From: an uncultured bacterium
GTDB taxonomy: Bacteria; Acidobacteriota; Thermoanaerobaculia; Multivoradales; JAHZIX01
NCBI GenBank assembly: GCA_965368975.1
Contig: CBDUPA010000012.1
Span: 83,540-147,539, forward strand
Length of the DNA stretch: 64,000 nucleotides
Direction: 5' to 3'
Shown: positions 26,237 to 53,801 of the stretch, piece after piece
Numbering within the stretch: position 1 is the stretch's first letter
Layout of the letters: every line of letters begins with the position of its first letter
Translations under genes and position numbers: made by a program
Notes under the pieces: generated by a model
Seen by the model: only the letters and a program-made list of their open reading frames with translations
Database searches by the model: none
What the model was told of the DNA's origin: nothing

Positions 26237-27052
26237 ATGCGAATGTCGACAACGATTTCTACTGCAAGTTCCCTGACGTCGTGGCTGGCCAATGTCGCCC
26301 GCTACGGGGCGATCGCGCTGCTGGCGCTGCTTCTGGCAGCTTCGCTGCTGGCGCCTGCGTTGATCGCTCAGGCGTCCGATGTACCCGATCCTTCCGAGCC
26401 CGGGCTGAGCGCTGACGAGCAACTGCGCCGGCTGCTGGCTCGTGTTCAGTACGAGCAGCGCAACACGCGCACGCTGCACGCCGACTTCCGGCTGCTGCAG
26501 CAGAGTGAGCTGCTGCTCGAGCCGCAAGAGTCGTCCGGCGAGCTGTTCTACCGTGCACCGGACGAGGTGCGCTGGGAGTACAGTTCCCCTGAACCGATGA
26601 CGGTGGTCATTCGCGAGGATCGTATGCTCACCTGGTACCGCGATCTGCATCGAGCCGAGCGGGCGCAGGTGGGCAGTTATTCCGAGCGGGTGATGAAGTA
26701 TCTCAACGCTGCCAACTCCTTGGACGCGTTGCTCGAATACTTCGACGCCCGGGTCAGCTTCGCGCAGCTCGACCAGCCCTACCAGGTCAAGCTGGAGGCC
26801 AACAGCCCGCGCGTGGCGCGGCGTCTGAGTGGCATGACGCTGTGGATCGACCGCGAGCTGTACCGGCCGGTGAAGATCATCGTCGAATCGGCGGACGGCG
26901 ACGTGACGGAGTTCCAGTTCGAGAACTTCCGGGTCAACGGTGAGTTGCCCGAGGGCGTGTTCGACGTCGAGCTACCACCGGACGTCGAAGTGCGCGACGT
27001 CGAGCTGGGTAGTTCCAGCTCTGGAGCCGCCGCGAGCGGCGGTCACTTCTGA
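26237..27052 (+). CDS. LolA-like outer-membrane lipoprotein carrier/sorting protein
   Basis: Signal peptide: ARYGAIALLALLLAASLLAPALIAQA. LolA-like body: LHADFRLLQQSELLLEPQESSGELFYRAPDEVRWEY...MTLWIDRELYRPVKIIVESADGDVTEFQFENFRVNGELPEGVF. Confidence 0.6.
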   Translation: MRMSTTISTASSLTSWLANVARYGAIALLALLLAASLLAPALIAQASDVPDPSEPGLSADEQLRRLLARVQYEQRNTRTLHADFRLLQQSELLLEPQESSGELFYRAPDEVRWEYSSPEPMTVVIREDRMLTWYRDLHRAERAQVGSYSERVMKYLNAANSLDALLEYFDARVSFAQLDQPYQVKLEANSPRVARRLSGMTLWIDRELYRPVKIIVESADGDVTEFQFENFRVNGELPEGVFDVELPPDVEVRDVELGSSSSGAAASGGHF

Positions 27053-27080
27053 GCCCTGGCCGCGAGCGGGGGGAGCTGCG

Positions 27081-28733: not shown

Positions 28734-28932
28734 CCAAGATCTCGTGACGAGCTTCGTGACGGAGCGCGCTACGACAAGCCACAGACTGCCCTCCGCCGGC
28801 AACGTCCGCCGCTAGGAGCGAAACAACCCCCGAGTCAGAAGAATCCGCGAGCCGAGCGGTCACGGTCCGTTTCGGGACCGTCGGAGAAGCGTCGCCTCGG
28901 TGCCCGCGGGGCAAAGTTTTCAGGAGCACAAC

Positions 28933-29334
28933 ATGTCGATTTCATGGCTGCCCACGTGGATTGGGCCGCTCGCCACGGATGCTTTGGCTGGTCCTTTCAG
29001 CACGTTGGAAGGGCTGGGTAGGTTCTTGGCGCAGGCCGGCGGAGCGGGTGCAAGCGCGTTCGGTCAGCTGGCGCCGATCATCATCATCGTCGTCATCTTC
29101 TACATCATCGTCTTCCTGCCGCTGCGCAAGCAGCGCAAGCAGCACGCCACGATGTTGGAAGAACTACAGAAGGGCGACAAGGTGGTGACCAACGGCGGCC
29201 TTTACGCCGAAATCGTGTCGGTGGACGCGGACACCGTGATCGTCAAGGTGGCCGACAACGTCAAGCTCCGCATGATGAAGTCCGCGGTGGCGGGCAAGCA
29301 GGGTGAGGAACTCACCGGGAGCACGCAACAATGA
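28933..29334 (+). CDS. yajC: preprotein translocase subunit YajC
   Basis: APIIIIVVIFYIIVFLPLRKQRKQHATMLEELQKGDKVVTNGGLYAEIVSVDADTVIVKV. AGGAG lies 6 nt upstream of ATG 28933. Confidence 0.85.
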   Translation: MSISWLPTWIGPLATDALAGPFSTLEGLGRFLAQAGGAGASAFGQLAPIIIIVVIFYIIVFLPLRKQRKQHATMLEELQKGDKVVTNGGLYAEIVSVDADTVIVKVADNVKLRMMKSAVAGKQGEELTGSTQQ

Positions 29335-30914
29335 ACAACAGTCTAGTGATTCGCGCCCTGGTGATCTTGGGCGTCTTGGTGTGGGCGGCGTTCTCCGCTT
29401 ACCCGCCGCAGGAGAGCATCAACCTCGGCCTCGACCTGCGCGGCGGCATGCACTTGGTGCTGGAGGTCGAGACCAACGACGCTCTGCGCGCCGAGACCGA
29501 CCAGGACATGGACACGATGCGGGGCCAGCTGGCCGAAGAGGGCATCACCGGTGTGGTGCTCGAACGCAGTGCCCCGGCGGCCGACGGTAGCGTCTTCGCT
29601 TTCACCCTCAGCGGTGTGCCCGCTGGCGAGGACGACACGGTCGATCAGATCCACACGGATTACCTCGGCGACGATTGGGACATGAGCCGCAGCGGTGACA
29701 CCTACCGCTTCAGCCTGACCGAGAGTGCCAAGCGCGACCTGCGCAGCCGCACCGTCGACCAGGCGCGGCGCACCATCGAGCGGCGTGTCGACGCGTACGG
29801 CGTCGCCGAGCCGGCGATCCAGCGTCAAGGTTTCGGCGACAGCGAGCGGCTGGTCGTCCAGCTCCCCGGTGTCGACGACCCGGAGCGCGTCAAGGACCTG
29901 ATTCAGGACACCGCTTTCCTCGAGTTCCGCCTGCTCGATGAGCGCACTCCCAACGGCGCCGGCACGCGCGAGCAACTGCTGTCTCAGTTCGGCGGTACCC
30001 TGCCGGCCGACGTCGAGATCTTCCCCAGCGTGCTGGGACCCGAAGAGAGCGGCGAGCAGTTCTACGCCGTACAGGCCTCCAGCGTGCTCACCGGTCGCGA
30101 CCTGCGCAACGCGTCGGTAGGAGCCGGCGAGTTCAACGAGCCGGTGGTGAACTTCCGTCTCAGCTACGAGAAGGGCACCCAGTTCGGCGAGATGACCTCG
30201 TCCAACATCGGTCGCCGCATGGCCATCATCCTCGACGGCCAGGTGCTGTCGGCGCCCTCGATCAACGGTCGCATCAATGATCGCGGCATGATCGAAGGTG
30301 GCTTCGACCAGGCCGAGGCGCTCGACCTGTCGCTGGCCCTCAAGTCCGGTGCGCTGCCCGCCGGCATCACCACCCTGGAAGAGCGCACCGTTGGCCCGTC
30401 GCTGGGCCAGGACTCGATCGACCAGGGCCTCGAGGCTGGCCTCTACGGCGCCGGCTTGGTGGTGGTGCTGATGTTGGTCGTCTACCTGCTGTCGGGCATG
30501 AACGCCATCTTCGTGCTGGCGATGAACGTGGTGCTGGTGTTCGGCGCTCTGGCATCGCTCGGCGCCACGCTGACGCTGCCCGGTATCGCCGGCATCATCC
30601 TGACCATCGGCATGGCGGTCGACGCCAACGTGCTGATCTTCGAGCGCATCCGCGAAGAGCTGCGGATCAAGCCGGTGAAGGCGGCGGTCAAGGCCGGCTT
30701 CGAGAAGGCTTTCTCGTCGATCCTGGACGCCAACGTCACCACCCTGATCGCGGCGATCTTCCTGTTCCAGTTTGGCACCGGCCCGATCCGCGGCTTCGCC
30801 GTCACGCTCAGCGTCGGCATCTTCGCTTCGGTGTTCACCGCGGTCTTCGTGAGCCGCTTCCTCTTTGACCTGTGGCTCTCCCGCTCGACGGCGGTGGAAT
30901 CGATCTCGATTTGA
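29331..30914 (+). CDS. secD: protein translocase subunit SecD
   Basis: NLGLDLRGGMHLVLEV..., P1 domain, and C-terminal 6-TM block ...GIAGIILTIGMAVDANVLIFERIREE.... ATGA overlap with yajC. Confidence 0.92.
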   Translation: MNNSLVIRALVILGVLVWAAFSAYPPQESINLGLDLRGGMHLVLEVETNDALRAETDQDMDTMRGQLAEEGITGVVLERSAPAADGSVFAFTLSGVPAGEDDTVDQIHTDYLGDDWDMSRSGDTYRFSLTESAKRDLRSRTVDQARRTIERRVDAYGVAEPAIQRQGFGDSERLVVQLPGVDDPERVKDLIQDTAFLEFRLLDERTPNGAGTREQLLSQFGGTLPADVEIFPSVLGPEESGEQFYAVQASSVLTGRDLRNASVGAGEFNEPVVNFRLSYEKGTQFGEMTSSNIGRRMAIILDGQVLSAPSINGRINDRGMIEGGFDQAEALDLSLALKSGALPAGITTLEERTVGPSLGQDSIDQGLEAGLYGAGLVVVLMLVVYLLSGMNAIFVLAMNVVLVFGALASLGATLTLPGIAGIILTIGMAVDANVLIFERIREELRIKPVKAAVKAGFEKAFSSILDANVTTLIAAIFLFQFGTGPIRGFAVTLSVGIFASVFTAVFVSRFLFDLWLSRSTAVESISI

Positions 30915-30931
30915 CGGAGGCGTAGCCTGAT

Positions 30932-32116
30932 ATGCGATTTCTCACCGATCCGAAAATCGACTTCATGGGCATGCGAAAGGGCTTCATTGTCCTTTCCGTC
31001 GTGCTGGTGTTGTCGTCCCTGTCCTACCTTGTCTACGCCTACAGCAACGACGAGCTGAACGTCGGCATTGACTTTGCCGGCGGTACGCAGATCACCCTGC
31101 AATTCGGGGACACGCCCGATATCGATCAACTGCGCACGATCCTCAACGACGCCGGCATCGCCAAGCCGCAGATCCAGCGCTTCGGCCTCGCTGAGCGCAA
31201 CGAGCTGTTGATTCGCACCGCCACCGTCGAAGGCAGTGAAGAAGGCGCTTCCGACGCCCTCTTCGCCGCGCTCGACGGCGCTTACAACCCCGGTTCCGGC
31301 GCCGGTGACGACCTCAACCGCATGGGCCCCGATGCCGTTGCCCGCCTGCTCACCGCGTCCAACCCGCTCGGGCTGGATCTCATCCCCGGTGCTGTACCCG
31401 ATGAGTACCGGCAGATCGGTGAAGCCGTCATCGCGCAGCGTCGCGACGTCGGCCTACTGGCCAGTTGGGACGACCTGGCGAACATCGACGGCATGAGTCC
31501 CGAGAAGCTGACGGCCCTGCAGGACTCCACGCACCTGGGTGCCTTCTCGCTGCTCAGCGTCGAGAACGTCGGTCCGCAGATCGGCAGCGAGCTGAAGTCC
31601 AAGGGTATCTGGGCGGTCGTCTTCTCGCTCGTCGGCATGCTGGCCTACATCGCCTTCCGTTTCCAGCTGCGCTTCGGTATCGGCGCCGTGGTCGCCATCT
31701 TCCACGACGTCCTGATCACGCTCGGCATCTATGCCTTCCTCGGCTTCGAGTTCAACCTCACCCTGATCGCCGCCTTCCTGACGCTGGTCGGGTACTCGGT
31801 GAACGATACGGTGGTGGTTTTCGACCGTGTGCGTGAGAACATGCAACGCTTGCGCCGGGAGCCGTTGGTCGAGACGCTCAACAAGTCGCTCAACCAGACC
31901 CTCAGCCGTACGGTGATGACGTCCATGACCACCTTCCTGGTCGTGCTGACGCTCTTCGTCTTCGGTGGCCAGGTGATCCGCGGCTTCGCCTTCGTGCTCA
32001 CCGCCGGTGTCGTGGTCGGCACTTACTCCTCCGTCTTCGTCGCCTCGCCGGTGGTGCTGGCGTGGGAAGCCCGCTTCAGCAAGGAAGCACGGACGCGGCG
32101 TAGAGAAAGCAAGTAG
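30932..32116 (+). CDS. secF: protein translocase subunit SecF
   Basis: IDFMGMRKGFIVLSVVL..., GIDFAGGTQITLQF, ...FHDVLITLGIYAFLGFEFNLTLIAAFLTLVGYSVNDTVVVFDRVREN. Confidence 0.92.
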   Translation: MRFLTDPKIDFMGMRKGFIVLSVVLVLSSLSYLVYAYSNDELNVGIDFAGGTQITLQFGDTPDIDQLRTILNDAGIAKPQIQRFGLAERNELLIRTATVEGSEEGASDALFAALDGAYNPGSGAGDDLNRMGPDAVARLLTASNPLGLDLIPGAVPDEYRQIGEAVIAQRRDVGLLASWDDLANIDGMSPEKLTALQDSTHLGAFSLLSVENVGPQIGSELKSKGIWAVVFSLVGMLAYIAFRFQLRFGIGAVVAIFHDVLITLGIYAFLGFEFNLTLIAAFLTLVGYSVNDTVVVFDRVRENMQRLRREPLVETLNKSLNQTLSRTVMTSMTTFLVVLTLFVFGGQVIRGFAFVLTAGVVVGTYSSVFVASPVVLAWEARFSKEARTRRRESK

Positions 32117-32185
32117 GACGTACGTCGTTCCGTCCGAAATCCGGGTAGGGGCCGCCCTGCCGCGTCGCCACATCCCTGGATGCAT

Positions 32186-32218
32186 CAACCCCCGCCTCTT
32201 GGCGGGGGTTGGTGTTTG
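32186..32218 (+). terminator. rho-independent terminator after secF
   Basis: CAACCCCCGCC-TCTT-GGCGGGGGTTG followed by GTGTTTG. Confidence 0.7.
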
Positions 32219-32420
32219 CGGGCAAATTCCGTCGCTGTACCGGGATTCCCGGCAGGCAAGAAATGCGCGCCGCGCCGTGCCAGGATTGGCGCAAAAAGTT
32301 CCTCTGTCGTAGGACAAGCCCGGGATCACTTGTGCTCCGAGGCACGGCCGGCCGCCGTCGCCAAATCACAGAGTAAAAAGGGCTTGCGTCGATCCAGGGC
32401 GTGTTCTAGAATTGGAACTA

Positions 32421-33248
32421 ATGCTCTCTCGAATCGCGCGCCACCGCTTCGTGGAATTGATCCGCTCCCTGGACGCCAGAACCGACCTCGCCGAGGTTGC
32501 TTTGGTCGTGGCGGCCGAGACCACGCCCGGTCTGGATATCGAGGCCTACCTGCATCGTCTCGACTCCATGGCCGAAGAAGCGGATCGACGCACGCGTGCC
32601 GCCGAAGAGCCCCACCAGCGCATCGAGACGCTGAACCGCTACCTGTTCGAAGATCTCGGCTTCATCGGCGACGATGACGACTACTACAACCCGCGCAACA
32701 GCTTCCTCAACGAGGTTCTCGACCGCCGCTCCGGCATTCCCGTGACGCTGGCCCTGGTCTACCTCAGCCTCACTCGCCGCCTCGGCTGGCCGGTGGTCGG
32801 TGTCGGTTTCCCGGCGCACTTCCTGGTCAAGTACACGCGGCCGCAGATCCTCGTCGACCCTTTCACCGGCGAAGTGATCAACAAGCGCGAGTGTCGCCGC
32901 CGCTTGCGCATCGCCTTGGGCGACAACGCCGAGTGGCGCGACGACTACCTCGATCCCGCCGCGCCCGTAGACATCGTCCTGCGTTTGCTCACCAACCTCA
33001 AGCACATCTACATCCAGAGCCAGCGTCACGAACTAGCGCTCAGCTGCTGCGAACGCCTACTCCTGCTGCTACCGGACTCGCCCAAAGAGCTGCGGGATCG
33101 CGGGCTGGTACTGCTCGAACTGGAATGCCGCGAGGAGGCCTACGCCGACTTCGAACGCTTCCTCGAACTGGCCCCCGAAGACCCCGCCGCCGAAGCCGTG
33201 CGCGATGTGCTGTCGATGGCACGGCAGCAGATTCCCCTGGTCAACTGA
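32421..33248 (+). CDS. SirB1-like transglutaminase-fold/TPR protein (UPF0162 family)
   Basis: YYNPRNSFLNEVLDRRSGIPVTLALVYLSLTRRLGWPVVGVGFPAHFLVKY plus a C-terminal TPR-like segment. Confidence 0.6.
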   Translation: MLSRIARHRFVELIRSLDARTDLAEVALVVAAETTPGLDIEAYLHRLDSMAEEADRRTRAAEEPHQRIETLNRYLFEDLGFIGDDDDYYNPRNSFLNEVLDRRSGIPVTLALVYLSLTRRLGWPVVGVGFPAHFLVKYTRPQILVDPFTGEVINKRECRRRLRIALGDNAEWRDDYLDPAAPVDIVLRLLTNLKHIYIQSQRHELALSCCERLLLLLPDSPKELRDRGLVLLELECREEAYADFERFLELAPEDPAAEAVRDVLSMARQQIPLVN

Positions 33249-33591: not shown

Positions 33592-34695
33592 TTGGCTACC
33601 GGATCGGACCGTGAATCCGGTCCGGTAGCGGTACTCCTGAGCACCGTTTTCGCCCCATCGCCTGGGCAGCCCCCTGCCCCGGTATACACTAGAGGCGTGA
33701 AACAACCCGAGTCTCCGGAATCTGAGCATCCGGACCGTGATCCGGTCCCCGTACCGCCGGCTTCTCTGCAGGCTACTGCCGAGACGGAAGGCAACTACCC
33801 CGACCTGTACCTGGTTGCCGAGTGCGGCGAGCAGGATCAAGAGAAATTGGTGCGCGAACTGGTGGCCCCGATCGTGGCCGAGATCCGGGATCATCCGGAA
33901 CTCGAGTCGCTGTTCTTCGTGCGCATGAGCAAGCCTACCTGGCAAGTCCGCCTGCGTGTCGTCGGAGACTTGGAGTGGTTGCAGAACCGCTGCAGGCGCG
34001 TGATGTGCCTGCGTCTCGACGCCTTGCGCGGCCGGCGGGCGGTGCACGACTTCAGCCTGGGGCACTACGGGCGTGAGCTCGAGCGCTACGGCGGTGAAGG
34101 CGGCATGCGCATCGCCGAACAGCTGTACCACCACGACTCGCTCGCCTGCTTGGACCTGATCACCGCCGAGGCCCGCGGCCTGCTCGAACGTTCGCGGCGT
34201 GAGCTGGCGCTGCTCTACAGCGAGCGGCTGGCCAATCGGTTGGGCCTGCATGGCGAAGACCGCTCGCGCTTTTACCGCTACGGCTACCAGTGGACCTTCC
34301 AGACCGAGACCTGGGACCAGAGCGATGCCGACGCACTAGAAGAACGGTTCGAGCAACTGGAGGCCGGGCTGCGCTCCCTCTTTCCGCTGGGTGGCAAGGC
34401 ACCGCCCGAGACGGATCTCTGGGGCGGAGACGAGCCGGCGCGCGTTGGTGCCGGCCTGGCAGCGTCGCAAGAACCAGCGCTGGCACGGCTGCTCAAGGGG
34501 CACAGGGCGGGGCGCATCGGCGGTGATCTGGCCTACCTCGGCTGGTCCTACTGCCACCTCTTCTGCAACCGCCTGGGCATCGACCCGTCCGGCGAGGCGG
34601 TACAGCGCTACCTGATGCACCTGTACCACTACCGCGTCCGTGCCCAGGGCTCGCTGCCGGGGCCCTTGCTCACCGAAGCGGCCAGCGACACCTGA
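33592..34695 (+). CDS. LanB C-terminal (glutamate-elimination, SpaB_C / thiopeptide-type bacteriocin biosynthesis) domain protein
   Basis: LYLVAECGEQDQEKLVRELVAPIVAEIRDHPELESLFFVRMSKPTWQVRLRV... and LGHYGRELERYGGEGGMRIAEQLYHHDS fit the family pattern (FF-RY...H-RLR; Y-PE-ERYGG...AE-F--DS). The TTG start is uncertain; the N-terminal ~60 aa are Pro-rich. Confidence 0.7.
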   Translation: MATGSDRESGPVAVLLSTVFAPSPGQPPAPVYTRGVKQPESPESEHPDRDPVPVPPASLQATAETEGNYPDLYLVAECGEQDQEKLVRELVAPIVAEIRDHPELESLFFVRMSKPTWQVRLRVVGDLEWLQNRCRRVMCLRLDALRGRRAVHDFSLGHYGRELERYGGEGGMRIAEQLYHHDSLACLDLITAEARGLLERSRRELALLYSERLANRLGLHGEDRSRFYRYGYQWTFQTETWDQSDADALEERFEQLEAGLRSLFPLGGKAPPETDLWGGDEPARVGAGLAASQEPALARLLKGHRAGRIGGDLAYLGWSYCHLFCNRLGIDPSGEAVQRYLMHLYHYRVRAQGSLPGPLLTEAASDT

Positions 34696-34698
34696 ACG

Positions 34699-37464
34699 AT
34701 GGGGGACGGCTACCCCCGAGAGGCGGACTGCTGGCAGAGAGGGCCCCGCATCGCCCTCCTACGACTGGCGTTGCAACCCTGGCAGCGTCTGCAGGCTCTG
34801 CGCGCCGACGCGACCGTCGGGCACCTGGCCGTGGCCCGCCAGGCACAGGCCGAGCTCGACGCCCTCGTGCCGACGCTCGAGGCCGCACTGTTCACCGCCG
34901 CCGGTCCCAAGCGTCCCGCCGCCGGTCCCGTGGAGGCAGCGCGACGCCTGGCGTGCGTCGCGCTACGGCGGGCGGTGCACAATGGTCGGGAGTTGGACGC
35001 CTCGACACTCGGGAGCAGTGACCGCGACGGTGATCTGCAAGGGCAGCTGCAGCGATATAGCGAGCTGAAGGCTACTGTCGAGCGTGCCCGTGCCGCGGCG
35101 TTGCAGGCCTGCCAGGCCGAGTTGCCGCGGGCACGTCAGCACGTTCTCGACGCCAGCGCTGAACCGCTCCAGGCGGCGGCGCTAGCACTGGTCAGCCGAT
35201 CGCTGTTCCGCCGGCTGCAGCGTCTGCAGGCCGCAGCCGCACCCCATACTCAGGCCCGCGACGCCCAGACCCACGATACGCGTCACACCGTCGCCAAACT
35301 GCTCGCCTACCTCGACCGTGCCGCCAGCAAGACCAGCCCCAACGGCCTTTTCTGCGCCACCGCCGTCGCAACCTGGGGCGAGCGCCTGAACGTCCACCGC
35401 CTCGCTACGCCGCCGCGTGTCGATCTGCGCCTCAACGTCACCGAAGCGCGCAAACTCACCGCCCACCTCGGCTTCGGCCCGCAGATGGATGCCCTCGTGC
35501 GACCCCGTGTCACCACGACGCTGCATCGCCAATCCGCGGAGTCCGGCGAAGTCCTGACCTTCTGGCGCACAGCCTCGCTGCGTCGACCTGAGGACGACGA
35601 AGCTCTCCAGCGCCTGGGCGCACAGCCGATCGTCGACCTCTTCGTGCAACTGGCGGATGGTCGTCGCTCCGTTCCCGAACTCCTCCTGGCCGTCGCCAGC
35701 GCGGCGGCAGAGCACGGCATGGAAGTCAGCGTCGAGCAATTGGAGCCCTTCTTCCGCCAGCTCGTCGACGCCGGCCTGCTGCACGCCGAGATCGAGCTGC
35801 CGTACGGCTGCGGCCGCCCCCTGCGCGCGTTTGCGCATCGAGTTGAGGAACCGGCTGTCGACGGGGCCCCAAGGATTGCCGAGCTCGAAGCCATCGAAGC
35901 CGACCTCGACGCCGTCAACGCCACGCCCATCGAGGCCGCCGCTGCCGTCCGTCTGCCCGCCATCCTCGACGACCTGGCACGGCGTCTCGACGCCCAGGCA
36001 GCCACCCTGCCCGAACTGGCCCGGCCGCTCGTGCGCGATGAACTCTTCCGTCTCGACGCGGCCCTCGACGCGGCACCCGGTCGGCAAACCACCCTGCCGT
36101 GTCCCTGGCGCGACGCCCTGCAGCCCACCGTCGACGGCTACGCGCGCCTGTTCGCCTCGATGTACCCGTCGTCAAACTATCGTCAGCGCCTGGCGTCCGC
36201 CTTCCTGGAGCACTGGCCCGCGGACACCGACATCCCCCTGCTCGACCTCTACCATCACTTCCAACCACCACCCCCGGATTCCCGCGTACTCGACTTCCCG
36301 TGCCCGAGCAGCGATGTCGATAGCCAGCCGTACCAAGCCTGGCAGCAAGCCCGCGCCCTGCTCGTCGAGCTGGCCAGACAGGCCAGGGCGGCCGGGGAGC
36401 ACGAAGTCCGTCTCGACGACACCGCCTGGCATGCCTTGACGCATCCGCTTTCCGACCCAACCGGTCCTTCTGAGACGCTGAAGTGGACCGCCGGCGTTCT
36501 CTTCCAGCCCGTGCTCGCCAGTTCCGCGAACCGAAAGCAGCAGAACCGGCTCGTCCTCAACGCCCTCTTCTCGGGCACCGGCGTTGCCTTCGCCCGCTTT
36601 GCCGACCTGCACCCCGAAGTCGAGCCTGAGCTGCGCCGGCAACTCCGTGCCTCGGACTCTGCCGAAACCGCCCAAGTCCCCATCGTCGCCGAGCTGACCT
36701 ACAACCACTGGGGCCGCACCGCCAACGCCGGCCTGCGTCCACGACTCCACGAGTGGGAACTCGAACTCCCCGGTGACCGCGCCTCCGATGCTGGCTACGC
36801 CGCTGGCAAGGTCCTCACCCTCGCCGACCTCACCCTGCGCTACGACTCCACCGAGCAGCGCTTCCACCTGCGTCGCATCCAAGACGGTCGCCAGGTCCTC
36901 CCCGTTCTGTCGAGCGGCGTCAGCCCCGAAGGCCTGGTGGCGCTGCTGGTGGCGATCGGGCGTCAAGAGCAGCAGCCCCTTGGTCTGCTCCCCGGCTTCG
37001 CCTGGCCGGAAGAAGAGCTGGAACAAGACTTCCCAGACGGCGTTGAGACCTGGCCCCGCTTCGTCCGAGCTGTTTCTTCGGAGGCAGGCACTGACGAGAT
37101 CGACCTCGAAATCGTCCTCTGGCGCCGCCGCTGGCGCTTCCCCCGCGCCACCATTCCCAAACCCCCAAAGTCCCGCCCCGGCGACGACGCTGACCTCCAC
37201 CTCGCTACCTACTTCGCAGCCGTCGACACCTGGCGCCACCACCACCTCCTTCCTCGCCACATCTACCTCCACACCGCCACCGTCCGCAAGCCCACCCACG
37301 TCGATCTCGAATCCCCCCTCCACGTCGAGCTGCTGCGTCGACGCCTGGCGTCAGAGAAGGGAGATGTCTACGTCACCGAAGCGCTGCCGGGGCCAGAGGG
37401 TCTGTGGTGGGGCGGTGGAGACGAGCGCTCGAACGTCGAGGTGCTGGTGCAGTTGGGGGTGTGA
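34699..37464 (+). CDS. lantibiotic dehydratase (LanB) N-terminal glutamylation-domain protein
   Basis: 921 aa. VAKLLAYLDRAASKTSPNGLFCATAVATWGE matches the conserved LanB '...R-TPFGLFAGV..G' block. PELLLAVASAAAEHGMEVSVEQLEPFFRQLVDAGLLHAEIELP matches the typical winged-helix-like leader-binding region pattern. Confidence 0.75.
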   Translation: MGDGYPREADCWQRGPRIALLRLALQPWQRLQALRADATVGHLAVARQAQAELDALVPTLEAALFTAAGPKRPAAGPVEAARRLACVALRRAVHNGRELDASTLGSSDRDGDLQGQLQRYSELKATVERARAAALQACQAELPRARQHVLDASAEPLQAAALALVSRSLFRRLQRLQAAAAPHTQARDAQTHDTRHTVAKLLAYLDRAASKTSPNGLFCATAVATWGERLNVHRLATPPRVDLRLNVTEARKLTAHLGFGPQMDALVRPRVTTTLHRQSAESGEVLTFWRTASLRRPEDDEALQRLGAQPIVDLFVQLADGRRSVPELLLAVASAAAEHGMEVSVEQLEPFFRQLVDAGLLHAEIELPYGCGRPLRAFAHRVEEPAVDGAPRIAELEAIEADLDAVNATPIEAAAAVRLPAILDDLARRLDAQAATLPELARPLVRDELFRLDAALDAAPGRQTTLPCPWRDALQPTVDGYARLFASMYPSSNYRQRLASAFLEHWPADTDIPLLDLYHHFQPPPPDSRVLDFPCPSSDVDSQPYQAWQQARALLVELARQARAAGEHEVRLDDTAWHALTHPLSDPTGPSETLKWTAGVLFQPVLASSANRKQQNRLVLNALFSGTGVAFARFADLHPEVEPELRRQLRASDSAETAQVPIVAELTYNHWGRTANAGLRPRLHEWELELPGDRASDAGYAAGKVLTLADLTLRYDSTEQRFHLRRIQDGRQVLPVLSSGVSPEGLVALLVAIGRQEQQPLGLLPGFAWPEEELEQDFPDGVETWPRFVRAVSSEAGTDEIDLEIVLWRRRWRFPRATIPKPPKSRPGDDADLHLATYFAAVDTWRHHHLLPRHIYLHTATVRKPTHVDLESPLHVELLRRRLASEKGDVYVTEALPGPEGLWWGGGDERSNVEVLVQLGV

Positions 37465-37638: not shown

Positions 37639-40362
37639 GTGGTCGTATGTCTCTTGGAGACAGTCGTTCGAAGAGCAGTGACAGCTGCTGCGATTCTGAC
37701 GCTTGTCGTGGGACTGGGCTTACAGGCACAGTCAGGGTCTGCTAACGCCCCGAAAGGGGCCCAGTTTGTCTTCGTGATCGATGATTCTGGCAGCATGGGG
37801 CAGCCGGAACACGGGCTTACAGACCCCGATCGGCTGGCTGTGTTCGCGGTGCGTGCTCTACTGGGTGTGCTCGACGACCGGGACTGGGCGACAGTTGTTC
37901 GTCTCAATGGCCCTCGCGAGGGTGAAGATCCGCTATCGCTGGCGCCTTTGGGAGATGCGCACCGAACCCGGCTGATGGAGGTTCTGCAGCTGGACGCGGA
38001 ACTGGCGCGATATGAGGGGGAGTACACGCCTTGCCGAAGGGCTCTACAGGCCGTCAAGCGGATGCTCGAAGGGTCGGATAGGCAGAACATTTCCCAAGTC
38101 GTGATCTTCCTTTCGGATGGCAAGTGCACACCGGTAACGCAAGGGGAAGATCGTGTCCTTGACTTTGCTGAAGGTTTGCGCTCGGCTCAGGGAGAGAATC
38201 CGCGCCTTCAGTTCTACTTTCTGCGATTCGAAGGGCAAGAGTACACTCCGGGGCTGGAGCAGCTGGCCGAGAACACCGGAGGTTCGGCGATCGAGGTCCG
38301 ACAGGGGGATCCGACGCGGATCCTCTACACCTTTGCGCAAGCGCTGGCCCGCTCGCAGGGCTACGAACCTCTGATCCTCAGTCCGAGCGTGCGGCAGCTG
38401 CCGGCCTACCGGGGGGCCAACCGAGTCCGCTTGCTGGCAATTGCGCGCGGCGATCAGGGAGAGCCGTTGGCGGTGCGCGTCCGGCGTCGTCAAGGGGGCG
38501 GAGTCGATACGGTGCCGATCGAGCAGGGCACCCACAGATTCCCGGGGCAACAGGGGTATCGCTTCGCTTCGGTGCAGTATCGGCCGGTCGAGCAGCCGGT
38601 GGAGGTGGAGGTGGTCGGAGCCGGCGAGGATTGGGAGGTCGTTGCCTTGCCGGAATATCACCTGGCGGTCAACCTGGCCTTGCGTCGTGGTGGCTGTGAG
38701 GAGGAAGGCGAGACCCTGGGTGGCGTCACGCCAGCCGGAAGCGGATTGTGTGCGGTGATCGAGCTAGTCAATGAGGAAGGGCGCGTGGTGGGCAAGGAGG
38801 TGACCACCGGGCAGTTACAGGCTTCCTTGCGTCAGACAGTCCCGGGTGGTTCCGAGCCTCGGCTGATTTCGGCAACGGAAGCTTCCTCGGATCTCGCCAG
38901 CTTCCGCTTGGATATACAAGGGCTCGAGAGCGGTCACCACGAGTTTCAGGGGCAGGTCCAGTTGGGGACCCAGGTTGACGATCCCCGAGTTCTGACGGGC
39001 ACTGCGCGAACACTGCAAGCAGTAGATCTGGCGATCCGGCCGGTTCCGAGTGAGCTGCGACTCGATCCAATCCAGCCCGGTGAGGTCAGCCGTCAGAGCC
39101 TGGAGATCCATGGCAACTTCGCGCCGTCGGAAGCCGTGGTCTCCTTGGAAGAGGGAGAGAATCTGCCGAGCTGCGTGACCTTAAGCTTTGACGGCAAGGA
39201 GCTTGGAGAGACCATCTCGATTCGTCCAAAGCAGGGCTACTGGGTCGAATTTCGGGCGGCCAAAGCCTGCGGCGAGACGCAAGGTCGACAGGTCGATGCG
39301 CGCCTGCGCCTGGAGCTTGCGGGACTCGATTCGATTGCCATACCGGTAACCTTTCGCTTGGAGAACAACGCCCAACGCCGAGATCCGACAACAGTGGAAT
39401 TGCGGGCAGGTACGACGAGAGAGGTCGATGTAGCAATCCCCGCGGCCTGGAATTCTTTCGACGTACAAGCAACCGCCGCCGAGAATGCGCAGGGCGAAAC
39501 CTATGAGTTGCTGCGCGCTGAGATTCTGAGCGAGCCTCCGATTCCCTCTGAAGACGGTGAAGCCTCAGGTCGCCAGCGAGTCGAGGGATTGACCGCTGAA
39601 CAGGGACTGTCTCTGCAACTCGTAGCTTCGGGCTGTTGCAGGTCCGGGACCTACGCCCTCGATGTCTACCTGTGGCCCAAGGTCGGTGCCACGACCATCG
39701 TACCGCTGGTCGTCGAAGTCGAGGCCAGCTGGTGGACCTGCTACGGCTCTTGGGTGCTCGCGGGGACCATCGGTCTCTTGGCTGGCTTGCTGGTGTTCTA
39801 TGTCCTGAGCATGTTCAGTCATACCACCTTGCTCGACCGAGACCAGCTGAGCGCTCGTCTAGTGCCCTTACGCTGGCCTCGCCATCGCGGCGCACCGCAA
39901 CCCGCCAGCAATCGCAGTAGTGACCGAGAAGAGGTCGAAGACATTGTGCACAGTGAAGTCTCTAGCCTGCAGCGGGTGCGGAGCTGGCTACGAGCCAATC
40001 CCCTGGTCTTTGGCTCGCCTGGGCGAGAGTACAGAGAGACGGCCGAACTCTTTTTGACCACTGATCTCGGGCTAACCTCGATTTCCCTGGTATTGGAGCG
40101 GGATGTCGTCGACCGACTCCGGACGAGCGAGGAGATCGACACTTGGGAAGAGGGGAGGCTCTTCGCGCGCGCCGGCAATCCCGTCTCCTTCTTTGTCGTG
40201 CGCGGTCCGAGCAAGAAAGTTCAGCAGATGACTCCGGAAGGCTGGTTCGGCAAGGTCGATGACCTGACTGTCGAGCAGGTTTCCAAAGGACAAAGATTCA
40301 TTCGTCAGCTTTCCATCAAAGAGCGCAAAGAAGGCGCTGTGGCCGGGTGGGTTCTGGAATAG
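37639..40362 (+). CDS. exported von Willebrand factor A (vWA) domain protein with single C-proximal TM helix and cytoplasmic tail
   Basis: Signal/anchor: RRAVTAAAILTLVVGLGLQAQS. vWA with MIDAS: FVFVIDDSGSMGQ...; VVIFLSDGKCTP. About 500 aa of beta-rich repeats follow. TM helix: WWTCYGSWVLAGTIGLLAGLLVFYVLSMF. The tail is ~200 aa. Confidence 0.75.
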   Translation: MVVCLLETVVRRAVTAAAILTLVVGLGLQAQSGSANAPKGAQFVFVIDDSGSMGQPEHGLTDPDRLAVFAVRALLGVLDDRDWATVVRLNGPREGEDPLSLAPLGDAHRTRLMEVLQLDAELARYEGEYTPCRRALQAVKRMLEGSDRQNISQVVIFLSDGKCTPVTQGEDRVLDFAEGLRSAQGENPRLQFYFLRFEGQEYTPGLEQLAENTGGSAIEVRQGDPTRILYTFAQALARSQGYEPLILSPSVRQLPAYRGANRVRLLAIARGDQGEPLAVRVRRRQGGGVDTVPIEQGTHRFPGQQGYRFASVQYRPVEQPVEVEVVGAGEDWEVVALPEYHLAVNLALRRGGCEEEGETLGGVTPAGSGLCAVIELVNEEGRVVGKEVTTGQLQASLRQTVPGGSEPRLISATEASSDLASFRLDIQGLESGHHEFQGQVQLGTQVDDPRVLTGTARTLQAVDLAIRPVPSELRLDPIQPGEVSRQSLEIHGNFAPSEAVVSLEEGENLPSCVTLSFDGKELGETISIRPKQGYWVEFRAAKACGETQGRQVDARLRLELAGLDSIAIPVTFRLENNAQRRDPTTVELRAGTTREVDVAIPAAWNSFDVQATAAENAQGETYELLRAEILSEPPIPSEDGEASGRQRVEGLTAEQGLSLQLVASGCCRSGTYALDVYLWPKVGATTIVPLVVEVEASWWTCYGSWVLAGTIGLLAGLLVFYVLSMFSHTTLLDRDQLSARLVPLRWPRHRGAPQPASNRSSDREEVEDIVHSEVSSLQRVRSWLRANPLVFGSPGREYRETAELFLTTDLGLTSISLVLERDVVDRLRTSEEIDTWEEGRLFARAGNPVSFFVVRGPSKKVQQMTPEGWFGKVDDLTVEQVSKGQRFIRQLSIKERKEGAVAGWVLE

Positions 40363-40408
40363 AGCTCGAGGCCGGTCCGAAAACAAAAGCAAAATTGCGA
40401 GGTTGAAC

Positions 40409-43400
40409 ATGGCCAGAGATCGTAAGTTGATCGTCGAAGAACTCCTGACCAAGCCCAGCGGCGTGTGTCCGATGCTGTTCGTTGGTATGGGAGGAGCGGG
40501 TTGCAGGATGGTGGAGCGGATCGCCGGTCATCTCCGAGGTCGACCGGATTATAAAGAACGCTTCAAAGATCTGGTCAAGTTCGCCATGATCGACAGCAAT
40601 GTCAATGATCTGGAAGGGTATCGAGAAGTGGCCAATGCAACCTTCCTGATCAGTGACTTCGAGAAGGAGGAGTACGCCAATCTGGCCTCTGGCAAGAAGT
40701 TCCTGGAACCGCAGCAGTACTTTACACAGTGGGTGCCGTCGGACTATCGCTTCCGCTCCGGAGATACCTCGGGGGCTGGCCAGATTCGCATCGAATCTCG
40801 TCTGGGTGTTTACTACCAGATGAAGCACAAACAATTCGTGCCCAGATTCCGCAGTCTCTTGGAGAGTCTGAAGTCGCACGAGAACGGACATCGGAGGTTG
40901 GACTCCGACGAGATCCGGATCGTACTCTGCTATTCCGTCGCCGGCGGAACCGGCTCCGGTTGTCATCTGCCAGTGGCCTATATGTTGCGGGATCAGGCCG
41001 ACGACCTGGGCAAGCCGACTTTGATCGGTGTTGCGGTGTTGCCGGCGGTCTTCGAGGACAAGGTCGGCGTCAATAAGGATGGTGTTTTTGCCAACGGTTA
41101 TGCAGCTCTGAAGGAAACCGAGCATTTGATGAAGCTCGGTGCCCCGGATTCTCGGTTCTTTCCCGAGAAGGGGATCGAGTTTCACTACAACCCCGCCGAT
41201 GAATCGAAGCGAACGGTTCACGCGCGTCCCTTCGACTTCCTTTATCTGATCGACAAACCCGAGTCGTTCAGCGTTCCCGAGCCGGTGGATGCTGCGGCGG
41301 ACGGACTCTATCTGCAGTTCTTCTCGCCCCTCTACGGGGCCCAGCTCTCCGACTACGACAACTACACGCAGTACCAGAGGTTCTTGGTACCGGAAGACTT
41401 CGAAGAGGGAGGCATTCCGGGCTTCTCGACCTTCTATGGCTCCTACGGTTGCGCAGTGCTCCTGGTGCCGGTTCCCGGCCTGGTGGAGTATTGCAGCCAG
41501 GCTGCCGCCCTGGCGTTGATTCGGGCCAGCTTCATGGGGGATATCCCAGCGGATCCGATGTACGAGCCCTTGCGCATCGACAGCGACCGCTTCTATGAAG
41601 TCAAGGAGCGCGACGACGAGGATGCGCAGCTCTTCCAGGCTGCGGATATCCCCAGTCAGCCTCAGAAAGAGCGTCGCCGAAGGTTGTTCGATCGGCTTTT
41701 TGCCAAGCGGGTGCGCCTGCTGGCGGCGTGTGAGTACCGGGCTGACCGCGACGGCCGGTTCCGCGGCATCTTCCGGCACGGCCACTATCTCGGAACCATC
41801 CCGAAGCTCGACGGTAGCGCCGTCATGGACATGGAGCGGTTCGACGAAGAGGCCGAGCGCGAGCGCGAGCTGGTCGGTGGCAAGCTCAGCGTTTCGATCG
41901 GCGGCATCATCCTGCCCGCCTTGGTCGGACTGCCGGGGGACGACCCCGGACTCCTGCAACGGGCGCACCAAGCGATCAAGAACTTCAAGGTCGACAAGCC
42001 GCGTCGTGACATGCGGGTCAACGAACTACGAGCGCGCGGCGACGCGTGGCGGACGATGTTGAGGGATGAGGGGCGTCAACGCCTGCGCGATGGCTACAGC
42101 GATGGCACGGTGCAGGTGCCTGGCATGGAGAGCCTGGTGCAAATGGACTTCCTGCGCCGGGAGGCGGGAGAGGTCGAGCTGGCGGCCAAGCGCTACGCGG
42201 TGCTCTCTCTGCTCGACGCGGTGGATTGGGAACAAGCGCCGGAAGACGAGGCCGAGTCCAACTTCGATGTCCAGGAGAAGAAGCCCACGGCCAAGGCCGA
42301 CGATGCCTTGATCGAGCACGTAATCAACCAGGCTCGGGATCTGGCCTTCCGCGACATCCGCCGCGAGTTCCTGTCCCAATTGGGCGAGTTGCGCGAGGCG
42401 CTGGAGAGCATCGCCGACGAGATGCGGGAGCTGGAGCAGGGGTCGACCAACCTGGAGCGCGAGTACGGTCGTCGCCTGGAGCGCCTGCAGTTCCAGGGCG
42501 AGGAGTCGGCCAATCAGTACATCCTGGACGCCGAGGCGTTGCAAGGGGAAGACAATCGACGCTTCTGGGACTTCTACTTCGAGGACAAAATCGCAGCTCT
42601 GCCCGAGTTGTCGCTGAGCAATGCTCGCGTGCAACAAATCCTGAGTGACACCGTCATCGAGCTATCGCAGCGTACGGGCCGCAGCACGAGCACGTCACGC
42701 CTGGAGAAACTGTTCACCGCGTTGCGCAAGTATGCCCAGGACTTCCTCGACAAGCGGATCGGCGGTGATCGTCACTCACCGGACCTGGAACGTCGCGAAG
42801 GGTTGACGCTGTCGGATGCGCTGGAGCTGGAGATCACCTACCGAGCGCTCTATCGCAGCTACGCCGAAGCGATCCAGGGGCAGGGGGACAAGGTCATTCG
42901 TCGCATTCTCTCCGAATACCGCGCCCTGCCCGACGAGAAGCAGATCGATTTCGCGGAGCCCAAGCACCAGGACTATCTGCGCGACAAGATCAAGCGGGTA
43001 GTGCAGGAGAAGGCATCCCTGCTCTGTGTCTACAACCACTCACGCGATCAGCATGGTGGCGTGCGGCCAAACCATATCTTCCTGGCCGCGATTGATGAGA
43101 ACTTCAAGAACAGCAACATCGAACAGGCGCTGAAAGATGCCGACATCGATGATCTCAAGTGGGTGTCCGGCAGCTGGCACAACGCCAAAGAGATCGTCTT
43201 CTACCGCGCGGTGTTGAATGTTCCGCTTTACACCTTCGGTCGGCTCGACCAGATGAAGCACCACTATGAAAGCTTCCGCAGTCTGAGGCGGCGCTCGAAG
43301 GTGCTGCACATCGACAAGAACTGGGAGGGTGACCAGCTCTGTGACCTGGATCCGGGCACGCTCAAAGAAGTGCATCGTCAACTAACCGTGCGCGACCAGA

Positions 43401-44278
43401 TCATCAACTTCACCTCGCTGCTGAGCAGCAAGCATCCGCGCATCGATGAGAAGGGGGCTACCTGCATCTTGCGTCGGCGCGGGCGCTACTATCTGCTGGA
43501 TCCGACCCTCAGCAAGATACCCGATGAGCACGATCCTGGTTCGACCTTGTTGGGCGACGCCCTGGCCCGAGCCATCGAACGCTTGCCCGAGGTGCTCGAT
43601 GCCGAGCGCGTGAACTTCAGCGAGTACCGGGATTCGCTGCACGGTGTACGCAATGGCATGGCCCCGTGGCTGCTGGGCAAGATCTGCAGGTTACCTTTCC
43701 AGTGGCGCCTGCAATACGAAGATTTGAGCAACCACTATGGGCATCAGCGTTCGATCGAGCAGCAAGAGATTCTGCGTGATCTGAAAAACTCCTACGAGAA
43801 GCTCAATGAAGCGCTGGACTCTCTGCTCGCGGAACTGCGCAATCGTCGACTCGAGAGTCGGACCCGCAAGGAGGACTTCACGGTCTACGCTCGCCGCTTG
43901 ACCGCCCAGCAGGCCAAGGATGCACTGGATCAGAGCATCAAGGTGCTGGCCAACTACAGCGAGGCCTGGAGCAAGGTCGAGGACAGCTCGCAGGTCCCGG
44001 ATACCCCCGAGTCGTTCGTGGATCTCTTCCAGCCTCTGGACCATGGCAAGTTGCAGAGCATGCTCGACAAGTTGCACAAGCCGATCCTTGATGACGATGA
44101 TGACGATGAGGAAGGCGATGGCCCCGGCCCAGCCAAGCCCCCAGCGGAGCCGGTCAAGCGCCCAGCGGAGCCAGACAAGCCCTCAGCGGAGCCAGACAAA
44201 GACTCGGCGGAGCCAGACGAAGACTCTGCCACTGAAGAGCCTTCGGAACCAGATCCCACTGAAACCGAAGGGTCATGA
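40409..44278 (+). CDS. giant tubulin/FtsZ-superfamily GTPase (Tubulin_2 / FtsZl-1-like) with long coiled-coil region and acidic repeat tail
   Basis: MLFVGMGGAGCRMVERI (G-box/T1-like), GDTSGAGQIRIESRLG (T3-like), and IRIVLCYSVAGGTGSGCHLPVAYML with the tubulin signature AGGTGSG at nt 40940-40960. GAGG lies 6 nt upstream of ATG 40409. The C-terminal ~800 aa are helical or charged. Confidence 0.7.
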   Translation: MARDRKLIVEELLTKPSGVCPMLFVGMGGAGCRMVERIAGHLRGRPDYKERFKDLVKFAMIDSNVNDLEGYREVANATFLISDFEKEEYANLASGKKFLEPQQYFTQWVPSDYRFRSGDTSGAGQIRIESRLGVYYQMKHKQFVPRFRSLLESLKSHENGHRRLDSDEIRIVLCYSVAGGTGSGCHLPVAYMLRDQADDLGKPTLIGVAVLPAVFEDKVGVNKDGVFANGYAALKETEHLMKLGAPDSRFFPEKGIEFHYNPADESKRTVHARPFDFLYLIDKPESFSVPEPVDAAADGLYLQFFSPLYGAQLSDYDNYTQYQRFLVPEDFEEGGIPGFSTFYGSYGCAVLLVPVPGLVEYCSQAAALALIRASFMGDIPADPMYEPLRIDSDRFYEVKERDDEDAQLFQAADIPSQPQKERRRRLFDRLFAKRVRLLAACEYRADRDGRFRGIFRHGHYLGTIPKLDGSAVMDMERFDEEAERERELVGGKLSVSIGGIILPALVGLPGDDPGLLQRAHQAIKNFKVDKPRRDMRVNELRARGDAWRTMLRDEGRQRLRDGYSDGTVQVPGMESLVQMDFLRREAGEVELAAKRYAVLSLLDAVDWEQAPEDEAESNFDVQEKKPTAKADDALIEHVINQARDLAFRDIRREFLSQLGELREALESIADEMRELEQGSTNLEREYGRRLERLQFQGEESANQYILDAEALQGEDNRRFWDFYFEDKIAALPELSLSNARVQQILSDTVIELSQRTGRSTSTSRLEKLFTALRKYAQDFLDKRIGGDRHSPDLERREGLTLSDALELEITYRALYRSYAEAIQGQGDKVIRRILSEYRALPDEKQIDFAEPKHQDYLRDKIKRVVQEKASLLCVYNHSRDQHGGVRPNHIFLAAIDENFKNSNIEQALKDADIDDLKWVSGSWHNAKEIVFYRAVLNVPLYTFGRLDQMKHHYESFRSLRRRSKVLHIDKNWEGDQLCDLDPGTLKEVHRQLTVRDQIINFTSLLSSKHPRIDEKGATCILRRRGRYYLLDPTLSKIPDEHDPGSTLLGDALARAIERLPEVLDAERVNFSEYRDSLHGVRNGMAPWLLGKICRLPFQWRLQYEDLSNHYGHQRSIEQQEILRDLKNSYEKLNEALDSLLAELRNRRLESRTRKEDFTVYARRLTAQQAKDALDQSIKVLANYSEAWSKVEDSSQVPDTPESFVDLFQPLDHGKLQSMLDKLHKPILDDDDDDEEGDGPGPAKPPAEPVKRPAEPDKPSAEPDKDSAEPDEDSATEEPSEPDPTETEGS
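44141..44224 (+). repeat. 4 x 21-bp in-frame tandem repeat (PAEPVKR/PAEPDKP/SAEPDKD/SAEPDED) inside the tubulin-like gene
   Basis: CCAGCGGAGCCGGTCAAGCGC / CCAGCGGAGCCAGACAAGCCC / TCAGCGGAGCCAGACAAAGAC / TCGGCGGAGCCAGACGAAGAC. Confidence 0.85.
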
Positions 44279-53649: not shown

Positions 53650-53801
53650 AGATCTGTAGATTTCTGTGCTGGATTTCCGGGAATGGCTCCACTAAGAAGA
53701 AACGCGAGAACACGTCGATTCCCGGACCAACGGCTGTACTCAATCTCGGCGGAAAAATTCAGCTTGGCTTTCTGAGTGGCTTAGATCATGAAGACGGGCC
53801 C

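Follow-up and report, generated by a model that had tools for sequence, protein, structure and literature searches.

A 64,000-nucleotide stretch of DNA from an uncultured bacterium (Acidobacteriota; Thermoanaerobaculia; contig CBDUPA010000012.1, positions 83,540 to 147,539; called the window in what follows) carries at 40409-44278 an open reading frame (ORF) for a 1289-aa protein in which a tubulin/FtsZ signature had been noticed from the letters alone. Our analysis places this ORF almost certainly in the FtsZl1 family (Makarova & Koonin 2010; Pfam PF13809), as one gene of a four-gene cassette that most likely specifies a membrane-bound, GTP-regulated tubulin/pseudotubulin assembly. Taken together, the FtsZl1 identity, the cassette and the membrane assembly constitute the best overall explanation of the locus, to which we assign a probability of about 0.8. 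The new element is a prediction from structural modelling, namely that the gene next to FtsZl1, designated g4, encodes a hidden, degenerate and membrane-anchored tubulin-fold protein; no mention of such a cryptic membrane-anchored tubulin gene was found in the papers searched.

The FtsZl1 protein

The longer ORF call (40403..44278, plus strand) opens at a TTG codon, and the ATG at 40409, with a GAGG Shine-Dalgarno-like element 8-9 nt on its 5' side, gives a 1289-aa product that is identical to the public protein P0001 and of the same length. The ORF of the original prediction is thus borne out by the ORF call and the translation. The gene and the features of its product are the following.

40409..44278, plus strand: gene 2, FtsZl1, 1289 aa, member of the FtsZl1 / Pfam Tubulin_2 family
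40466..41533, plus strand: predicted tubulin/FtsZ-fold GTPase domain, aa ~20-375, from S1-T1 to S7-H9
40472..40513, plus strand: T1 G-box strand and loop MLFVGMGGAGCRMV, aa 22-35; consensus Ptlf.GlGG.G; aligns to FtsZ VIGVGGGGGNAV
40760..40807, plus strand: T3 loop GDTSGAGQIRIESRLG, aa 118-133; GAGQiR.esRl in at least 80% of 108 diverse members
40940..40960, plus strand: T4 signature AGGTGSG, aa 178-184, invariant in homologues
41345..41365, plus strand: LSDYDNY, aa 313-319, a candidate for the T7 synergy loop, immediately following the H7-like helix at aa 292-305
41666..44008, plus strand: conserved C-terminal region, aa ~420-1200, mostly helical, no Pfam/PDB match
44089..44218, plus strand: disordered acidic tail (Tandem Repeats Finder), lineage-specific

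The family assignment is carried by the Pfam Tubulin_2 profile (PF13809), positions 1-355 of whose 356 match aa 23-371 (E = 8.8e-41; 140.8 bits versus a cutoff of 27). Profile PF00091 (Tubulin/FtsZ) recognized the signature region only (aa 170-218; E = 3.6e-4), with 21.3 bits versus a gathering score of 33, and no FtsZ_C or Tubulin_C domain was found by Pfam in the 1289-aa protein. Sequence searches of the PDB, whether queried with the protein alone or with the family profile, matched no FtsZ or tubulin chain; because the subfamily profile is too narrow for a PDB search, superfamily membership was taken from Pfam, hhalign and fold comparison. With hhalign, the T1-T5/H5 portion was aligned to FtsZ (E = 1.3e-3 and 0.014) and the alignment was unreliable beyond H5, which reproduces the 2010 result of Makarova & Koonin that FtsZl1 is alignable to FtsZ up to helix H5 only (PMC2875224); these alignments serve as supporting evidence only. 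An AlphaFold2 model of residues 1-1200, built with 58 homologues (mean predicted local distance difference test score, pLDDT, of 73.5), was compared by Foldseek with the PDB, and FtsZ (1fsz) and CetZ (3zid) ranked first with probability 1.00 and weak E-values of 0.006-0.01; the non-tubulin matches of the whole model were generic helical bundles only. The predicted model of FtsZl1 thus displays the tubulin/FtsZ three-dimensional fold, and the N-terminal domain is predicted to adopt it. In agreement with the profile match and with the Foldseek ranking, the distant tubulin/FtsZ homology first proposed is upheld, and neither of the findings named as fatal to it, the lack of a significant profile hit and a different fold, was obtained (140.8 bits in Pfam; Foldseek).

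Makarova & Koonin described FtsZl1 as an FtsZ-like domain followed first by a coiled coil and then by a helical C-terminal domain, encoded in operons with vWA proteins (PMC2875224). PF13809 corresponds to their 'FtsZ-like' group, and Tubulin_2 forms a separate clade that serves as outgroup in FtsZ/tubulin phylogenies (PMC9871819); FtsZl1 is the most divergent known and deepest-branching group of the tubulin/FtsZ superfamily. When 1.84 billion cluster representatives (50% identity) were searched exhaustively by phmmer with the N-terminal 440 aa, 1,931 relatives were retrieved at E <= 1e-3, the full-length ones being mostly of 1,050-1,300 aa. More than 120 close full-length homologues (51-81% identity, 94-100% coverage) were found in Acidobacteriota/Thermoanaerobaculia, Bradymonadales and other Myxococcota, several of them named 'tubulin-like domain-containing protein' by NCBI. 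The size that was said to set the protein far apart from FtsZ, TubZ, BtubA/B and CetZ is therefore real but has been the FtsZl1 norm since 2010, and because size and layout define FtsZl1 (PMC2875224, PF13809) the architecture is not new.

Within the N-terminal domain, the three motifs quoted in the original prediction lie in the order given there, MLFVGMGGAGCRMV at aa 22-35, GDTSGAGQIRIESRLG at aa 118-133 and CYSVAGGTGSGCHLPVAY at aa 174-191, and the AGGTGSG signature occupies exactly the nucleotides claimed for it. The T1-T5 motifs follow each other in canonical order (aa 22-35, 58-68, 118-133, 174-191 and 205-217) and are kept family-wide among 108 diverse relatives, where the conserved blocks read Ptlf.GlGG.G, f...DT...dl, GAGQiR.esRl, AGGTGSG and lp..f; after T5 come aNgYAaLkE (H5), Pf...yl.D.p (S6/T6-like) and a.ad..ylq.fsp (H7-like), and the last blocks are s..DNy and yg..G.a.L..P (S7). 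All the nucleotide-contacting loops are intact (T1 GGxG, T2 D-S/T-N, T3 GAGQ, T4 AGGTGSG and T5 LPxxFxD), and therefore FtsZl1 is expected, from its sequence, to bind GTP. The stretch LSDYDNY is a plausible candidate for the T7 loop: its position matches the place that T7 takes after H7 in FtsZ, in a part of the model (aa 307-348) with pLDDT <50, and close homologues all keep D315, Y316, D317 and N318, the D317-N318 pair being present in at least 80% of the 108 diverse members.

Beyond S7-H9, ~850 aa replace the FtsZ/tubulin C-terminal domain. According to the AlphaFold model, the helix content over aa 421-1200 is 62%, with a single 65-residue helix (aa 632-696) in addition to helical bundles, while the mixed alpha/beta segment at aa 871-1050, also conserved, is poorly modelled; many invariant W/Y/G/P/R positions are spread along the whole extension across homologues, and no Pfam or PDB relative was found for it by sequence. 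This extension had been described as charged and coiled-coil-like. Its helical character is confirmed, but in place of a simple coiled coil there are bundles and an alpha/beta segment, so that the extension consists of conserved domains and not just of coiled coil. Tandem Repeats Finder recovered the predicted poly-Asp stretch (encoded by a repeat at 44089-44109) and also the acidic tandem repeat (a 21-nt unit in 4.3 copies with 84% matches, at 44129-44218, encoding PAEPDKx units), and the last 70 aa contain 26 D+E here versus a median of 11 in 120 homologues. Since the acidic tail and the repeat are confined to this orthologue, they are not a feature of the FtsZl1 family.

The four-gene cassette and the proposed g4 partner

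FtsZl1 is the second of four genes on the plus strand, successively separated by a 46-nt gap, a 4-nt (ATGA) overlap and a 20-nt overlap. The other members of the cassette are listed below.

37639..40362, plus strand: gene 1, vWA protein, 907 aa; Pfam VWA_2 1.4e-5, VWA 1.1e-3
44275..48330, plus strand: gene 3, g4, 1351 aa, 'hypothetical' in every database; its start overlaps the FtsZl1 stop (ATGA)
44275..46524, plus strand: predicted degenerate tubulin/FtsZ-fold region of g4, aa ~1-750; T1 = GVGRFG
47098..47235, plus strand: predicted transmembrane hairpin of g4, aa 942-987 (Kyte-Doolittle scan)
48311..52258, plus strand: gene 4, g5, 1315 aa; overlaps g4 by 20 nt

Eight homologous loci (L001-L005 and L007-L009; seven distinct contigs, of Persicimonas caeni and of metagenome-assembled genomes, MAGs) were fetched and compared. 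The gene order was identical in all eight and the flanking genes were different each time, and the cassette is also present in the cultured Bradymonadales Persicimonas, Lujinxingia and Bradymonas; it is a conserved, translationally coupled four-gene operon. The closest cassette relatives were found in Thermoanaerobaculia MAGs, with 88% identity over the N-terminal domain. Between loci, identities amounted to 52-80% for FtsZl1, 35-48% for the vWA protein and 33-53% for g5, so that the last two diverge fastest.

The vWA gene lies directly upstream of FtsZl1 in all the loci examined, at 46 nt here. Its product shows a signal-like hydrophobic N-terminus, a metal ion-dependent adhesion site (MIDAS) DDSGS at aa 48-52 with the conserved T and D, and a predicted topology of ~650 extracytoplasmic residues, a transmembrane helix (aa 706-724) and a ~180-aa cytoplasmic tail. 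The signal-like N-terminus and the transmembrane helix indicate that the vWA domain is extracytoplasmic, and the MIDAS pattern DxSxS...T...D is kept in 8/8 loci. The NCBI/ENA version of the protein, of 795 aa, starts ~112 codons later and loses the signal-like segment and DDSGS; this public start is probably mis-called, since it would remove a conserved signal-like segment and the MIDAS. FtsZl1 itself has no convincing predicted transmembrane helices and is soluble. The g5 protein contains five predicted N-terminal transmembrane helices (aa 29-315) followed by a DEAD-like P-loop domain (aa 446-583) with the Walker A motif APEGSGKT and the Walker B-like motif VVVDDVE; Pfam DEAD scored 2.7e-7 (30.9 bits versus a cutoff of 26) and matched 8/8 orthologues. 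PDB sequence searches with g5 and with the vWA protein gave nothing useful beyond a weak P-loop match to Brr2, and NCBIfam gave no meaningful match for any cassette protein.

Some g5 orthologues are ~260-300 aa longer at the C-terminus, reaching 1574-1621 aa (Persicimonas caeni, L001 18068-23753; an acidobacterial MAG, L002 17846-23747), and in these two loci g5 is followed by a further gene on the same strand, of at least 380-411 aa and with no Pfam hit. The window has neither this C-terminal extension nor the fifth gene.

The g4 proteins form a closed family of ~124 clusters, all annotated 'hypothetical' and with no Pfam domain. When the strand-loop pattern of g4 was compared by eye with that of FtsZl1, GIVVGVGRFG was found at the place of T1, RLTVFVVGDMSEPF at the place of FtsZl1 IRIVLCYSVAGGTGSG, and DDYFASFACCEIEFP versus FtsZl1 STFYGSYGCAVLLVP. 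VVGDMSEPF (aa 561-569) stands in place of the T4 signature, a ~480-aa insertion separates the N-terminal strands from S4, and a T7-like acidic stretch, LSRDDWL, is located at aa 691-697. In profile comparisons, Pfam Tubulin_2 reached E = 0.022 at aa 664-739 of g4, and with hhalign a broader Tubulin_2 profile matched S7-H9 with E = 7.3e-4. Taken together with structural modelling, these observations suggest that the N-terminal region of g4 most likely folds like tubulin/FtsZ, with its signature loop destroyed and ~480 aa inserted.

On these grounds, we propose that FtsZl1 and the degenerate g4 would join head to tail on the cytoplasmic side of the inner membrane, as alpha/beta-tubulin and BtubA/B do in their own assemblies. 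FtsZl1 would be the one subunit that binds and hydrolyses GTP, and g4 would supply the membrane anchor and possibly an activating T7-like acidic loop, and both the g5 ATPase and the binding of a ligand by the external vWA/MIDAS protein would be linked to the state of the assembly.

Nevertheless, several points weigh against this proposal. The tubulin fold of g4 is a predicted structure accompanied by weak profile matches (7e-4, 0.02 and 0.07), and because the sequence matches are weak, the paralogy of FtsZl1 and g4 rests mainly on the predicted fold. Neither BLASTP nor family-level hhalign gave a significant match between FtsZl1 and g4, the latter aligning the first strand only (E = 0.07), and a search with the g4-family profile for bridging sequences with PF13809 found none. 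The T7 loop of FtsZl1 is reliably placed neither by hhalign, being beyond H5, nor by the model (pLDDT <50). The interaction of FtsZl1 with g4 is proposed by analogy with alpha/beta-tubulin and BtubA/B, and we infer GTP binding, hydrolysis and polymerisation for FtsZl1, no experimental study on any protein of the family having been found in the literature.

Comparison with known systems

The cassette resembles the FtsZl1 operons described in 2010 in its divergent N-terminal FtsZ-like domain, which carries GGTGSG and can be aligned to FtsZ no further than H5, in the absence of FtsZ_C/Tubulin_C, in a coiled-coil/helical region followed by an alpha-helical C-terminal domain, in a length of ~1,050-1,300 aa, and in the association with a MIDAS-intact, often membrane-associated vWA protein and with other membrane-associated partners. 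In contrast, the cassette is here fixed at four genes (in Acidobacteriota/Thermoanaerobaculia, Bradymonadales and other Myxococcota), and g4 and g5 are not among the A1-A2/B1-B9/GTPase/OmpA/PK partners of the 2010 supplements, which list no helicase-type partner and no Acidobacteria (PMC2875224). The cassette also differs in being without a small GTPase, an OmpA protein or a fused kinase: no small GTPase, kinase or OmpA domain was found in the four genes, such partners being frequent and not defining for FtsZl1. A Ser/Thr kinase-TPR gene was present in the flank of one locus only (L005).

A second relevant group comprises the DO-GTPase/GAP1-N2 systems of Kaur, Burroughs, Iyer & Aravind (2020), which also combine a tubulin-domain protein bearing a C-terminal coiled-coil/alpha-helical region with a vWA protein whose transmembrane helices expose an extracellular vWA domain; the firmicute versions have two recognisable tubulin genes, and the systems are predicted to act near the membrane (PMC7159879). 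Our cassette has the combination set out by Kaur et al. 2020, in which a coiled-coil-bearing tubulin is accompanied by a membrane-anchored protein with an extracellular vWA domain. A TRAFAC DO-GTPase was not detected in it, no protein having a Walker A plus NKxD and the sole Walker A being that of the DEAD-like g5; FNIII-repeat and GAP1 components were likewise not detected, the latter without a GAP1 profile search having been made. The published systems are those of Firmicutes and Actinobacteria, in contrast to the taxa considered here.

The alpha/beta-tubulin, BtubA/B and Asgard AtubA/B heterodimers differ in several respects. Sequence identity to them amounts to only 9-15%, FtsZl1 and g4 are ~3 times their size, the C-terminal domain is cut short and replaced, and g4, with its ~480-aa insertion, is predicted to be an integral membrane protein. 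The pairing of FtsZl1 and g4 is, in contrast to that of these heterodimers, a proposed one.

Genomic setting and possible roles

Upstream of the cassette, the region 26940-33248 (plus strand) encodes tRNA-guanine transglycosylase, SecD, SecF and a transglutaminase-like/TPR protein, and these ordinary chromosomal genes indicate that the window is chromosomal rather than phage or plasmid DNA. The genes that lie on both sides of the cassette are listed here.

33592-34695, plus strand: Lant_dehydr_C, 3.3e-33
34699-37464, plus strand: Lant_dehydr_N, 1.4e-46
52263-53174, minus strand: 303-aa ORF with no Pfam/PADLOC match, GC content 0.53 versus a window mean of 0.66
53802-55967, minus strand: UvrD/GajB-like helicase
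55964-62461, minus strand: Druantia DruE-like helicase, 2165 aa, PADLOC DruE1 3.6e-99
62458-63900, minus strand: ORF matching the C-terminal part of Type IIG restriction-methyltransferases, 3.9e-76

The two Lant_dehydr genes constitute a split LanB-like pair in an unusual order, C then N (33592-37464, plus strand; GC 0.69). This lantibiotic-dehydratase pair was considered as part of the cassette and rejected, as it is absent from all the homologous loci and has a GC of 0.69 versus about 0.61. Directly downstream of the cassette there is a defence island (52263-63900, minus strand), in which the DruE-like protein carries the Pfam domains DEAD, Helicase_C, MZB/DUF1998 and REase_MTES_1575, and the low-GC 303-aa ORF sits between the cassette and the defence genes.

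Regarding the role of the cassette, we lean towards a conflict module, for defence or sensing, in the sense of Kaur et al. 2020, and rank it above housekeeping remodelling of the membrane, although its odds fall slightly short of even. This inclination has four sources. The cassette resembles a mobile island, with variable flanks, a patchy distribution among genomes and a GC of 0.57-0.64 versus 0.68-0.70 in the flanks; DruE, the GajB-like UvrD helicase and the Type IIG fragment adjoin it here, and SoFic (1e-115) lies directly upstream of it in L002; evolution is faster in the vWA protein and in g5 than in FtsZl1; and related tubulin plus vWA neighbourhoods have been read as conflict systems (PMC7159879). 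Against the conflict role, clear defence genes stand beside the cassette in only 2/7 independent loci, most homologous loci being flanked by ordinary metabolic/transport genes, and no recognisable toxic effector domain was found in the four cassette proteins. Nor did PADLOC-DB v2 give a convincing match to any of the four, the marginal partial hits being PD-Lambda-5_A (0.005), LeoBC (3.8e-5, in the coiled/transmembrane region of g4) and RTasNERD-Hel (5.6e-4, in the P-loop).

The same metabolic and transport flanks favor a housekeeping machine for membrane or envelope remodelling, in which anchored FtsZl1 filaments would act on the cytoplasmic membrane by deforming or organising it, as in vesicles and envelope structures. 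This was the original published prediction for vWA/FtsZl1 operons (Makarova & Koonin; PMC2875224), and it suits a cassette in which three of the four proteins are predicted to be membrane-anchored and the central one has a tubulin/FtsZ fold. We nevertheless consider this role unlikely. The patchy spread, the differing flanks and the lower GC would be unusual for a housekeeping machine, the DEAD-like NTPase would be a partner with no obvious role, and FtsZl1 is devoid of most of the C-terminal domain that serves the filament contacts of FtsZ.

Alternatively, FtsZl1 might form no filaments and be a non-polymerising GTP switch, changing conformation with its nucleotide, or a dimeriser in a membrane complex of fixed stoichiometry. 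The T6-H7-T7 region and the C-terminal domain are not reliably alignable (hhalign; PMC2875224), the 850-aa extension could block longitudinal contacts, a review states that the family may not form filaments (PMC3160578), and the dead nucleotide site predicted for g4 is that expected for a 1:1 heterodimer. Such a switch appears improbable to about the same degree as the remodelling machine.

A conventional cytoskeletal paralogue with a long tail, either a division FtsZ or a segregation motor of the TubZ/PhuZ type, is very improbable. FtsZl1 differs from FtsZ, CetZ and TubZ in lacking FtsZ_C, a conserved C-terminal peptide and any context of division or segregation genes, with T6-T7 not alignable by sequence; FtsZ_C/Tubulin_C were not found and PF00091 stayed at 21.3 versus 33 bits. 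At the locus, a dcw cluster, TubR/tubC and a phage or plasmid context are all absent. The immediate neighbours are the vWA gene, g4 and g5, with LanB-like genes and then SecDF and the tRNA-guanine transglycosylase upstream and defence genes downstream, and the protein falls in the separate Tubulin_2 clade (PMC9871819).

A regular expression for the signature [SAG]GGTG[SAT]G found 2 matches in the six-frame translation of the window versus 0.08 expected from shuffles. The second match, AGGTGTG at 33741-33761 (minus strand), belongs to a 119-codon frame on the strand opposite the Lant_dehydr_C gene and was discarded as a chance match in GC-rich sequence. Even though that meaningless match exists, a merely fortuitous motif in a GC-rich ORF has a negligible probability for the 1289-aa protein, the main argument, at the level of sequence, being the full-length Pfam Tubulin_2 match and not the number of signature matches.

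Returning to the membrane-bound FtsZl1/g4 assembly, its boldest form would be a so far undescribed transmembrane tubulin/pseudotubulin immune system, anti-phage or anti-competitor, in which FtsZl1 would be the GTP-competent subunit, g4, with its T7-like LSRDDWL loop, a nucleotide-dead anchor and GTPase activator, the vWA protein the trigger and g5 the readout. We regard this version as a long shot, less probable than either remodelling or the switch; if true, it would mean that the division of labour between alpha- and beta-tubulin had been invented independently a second time.

The FtsZl1 protein itself is a rediscovery, the family having been in the literature and in Pfam since 2010, and on that count it is ordinary. 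The locus, in turn, is a clean and compact form of the system, a fixed four-gene cassette that is also found in cultured Bradymonadales. If the FtsZl1/g4 pair is real, it would offer a route to how giant tubulin-like proteins assemble at membranes and would provide a prokaryotic parallel to active/inactive tubulin heterodimers, with g4 as the predicted tubulin-fold partner that sequence annotation had missed.

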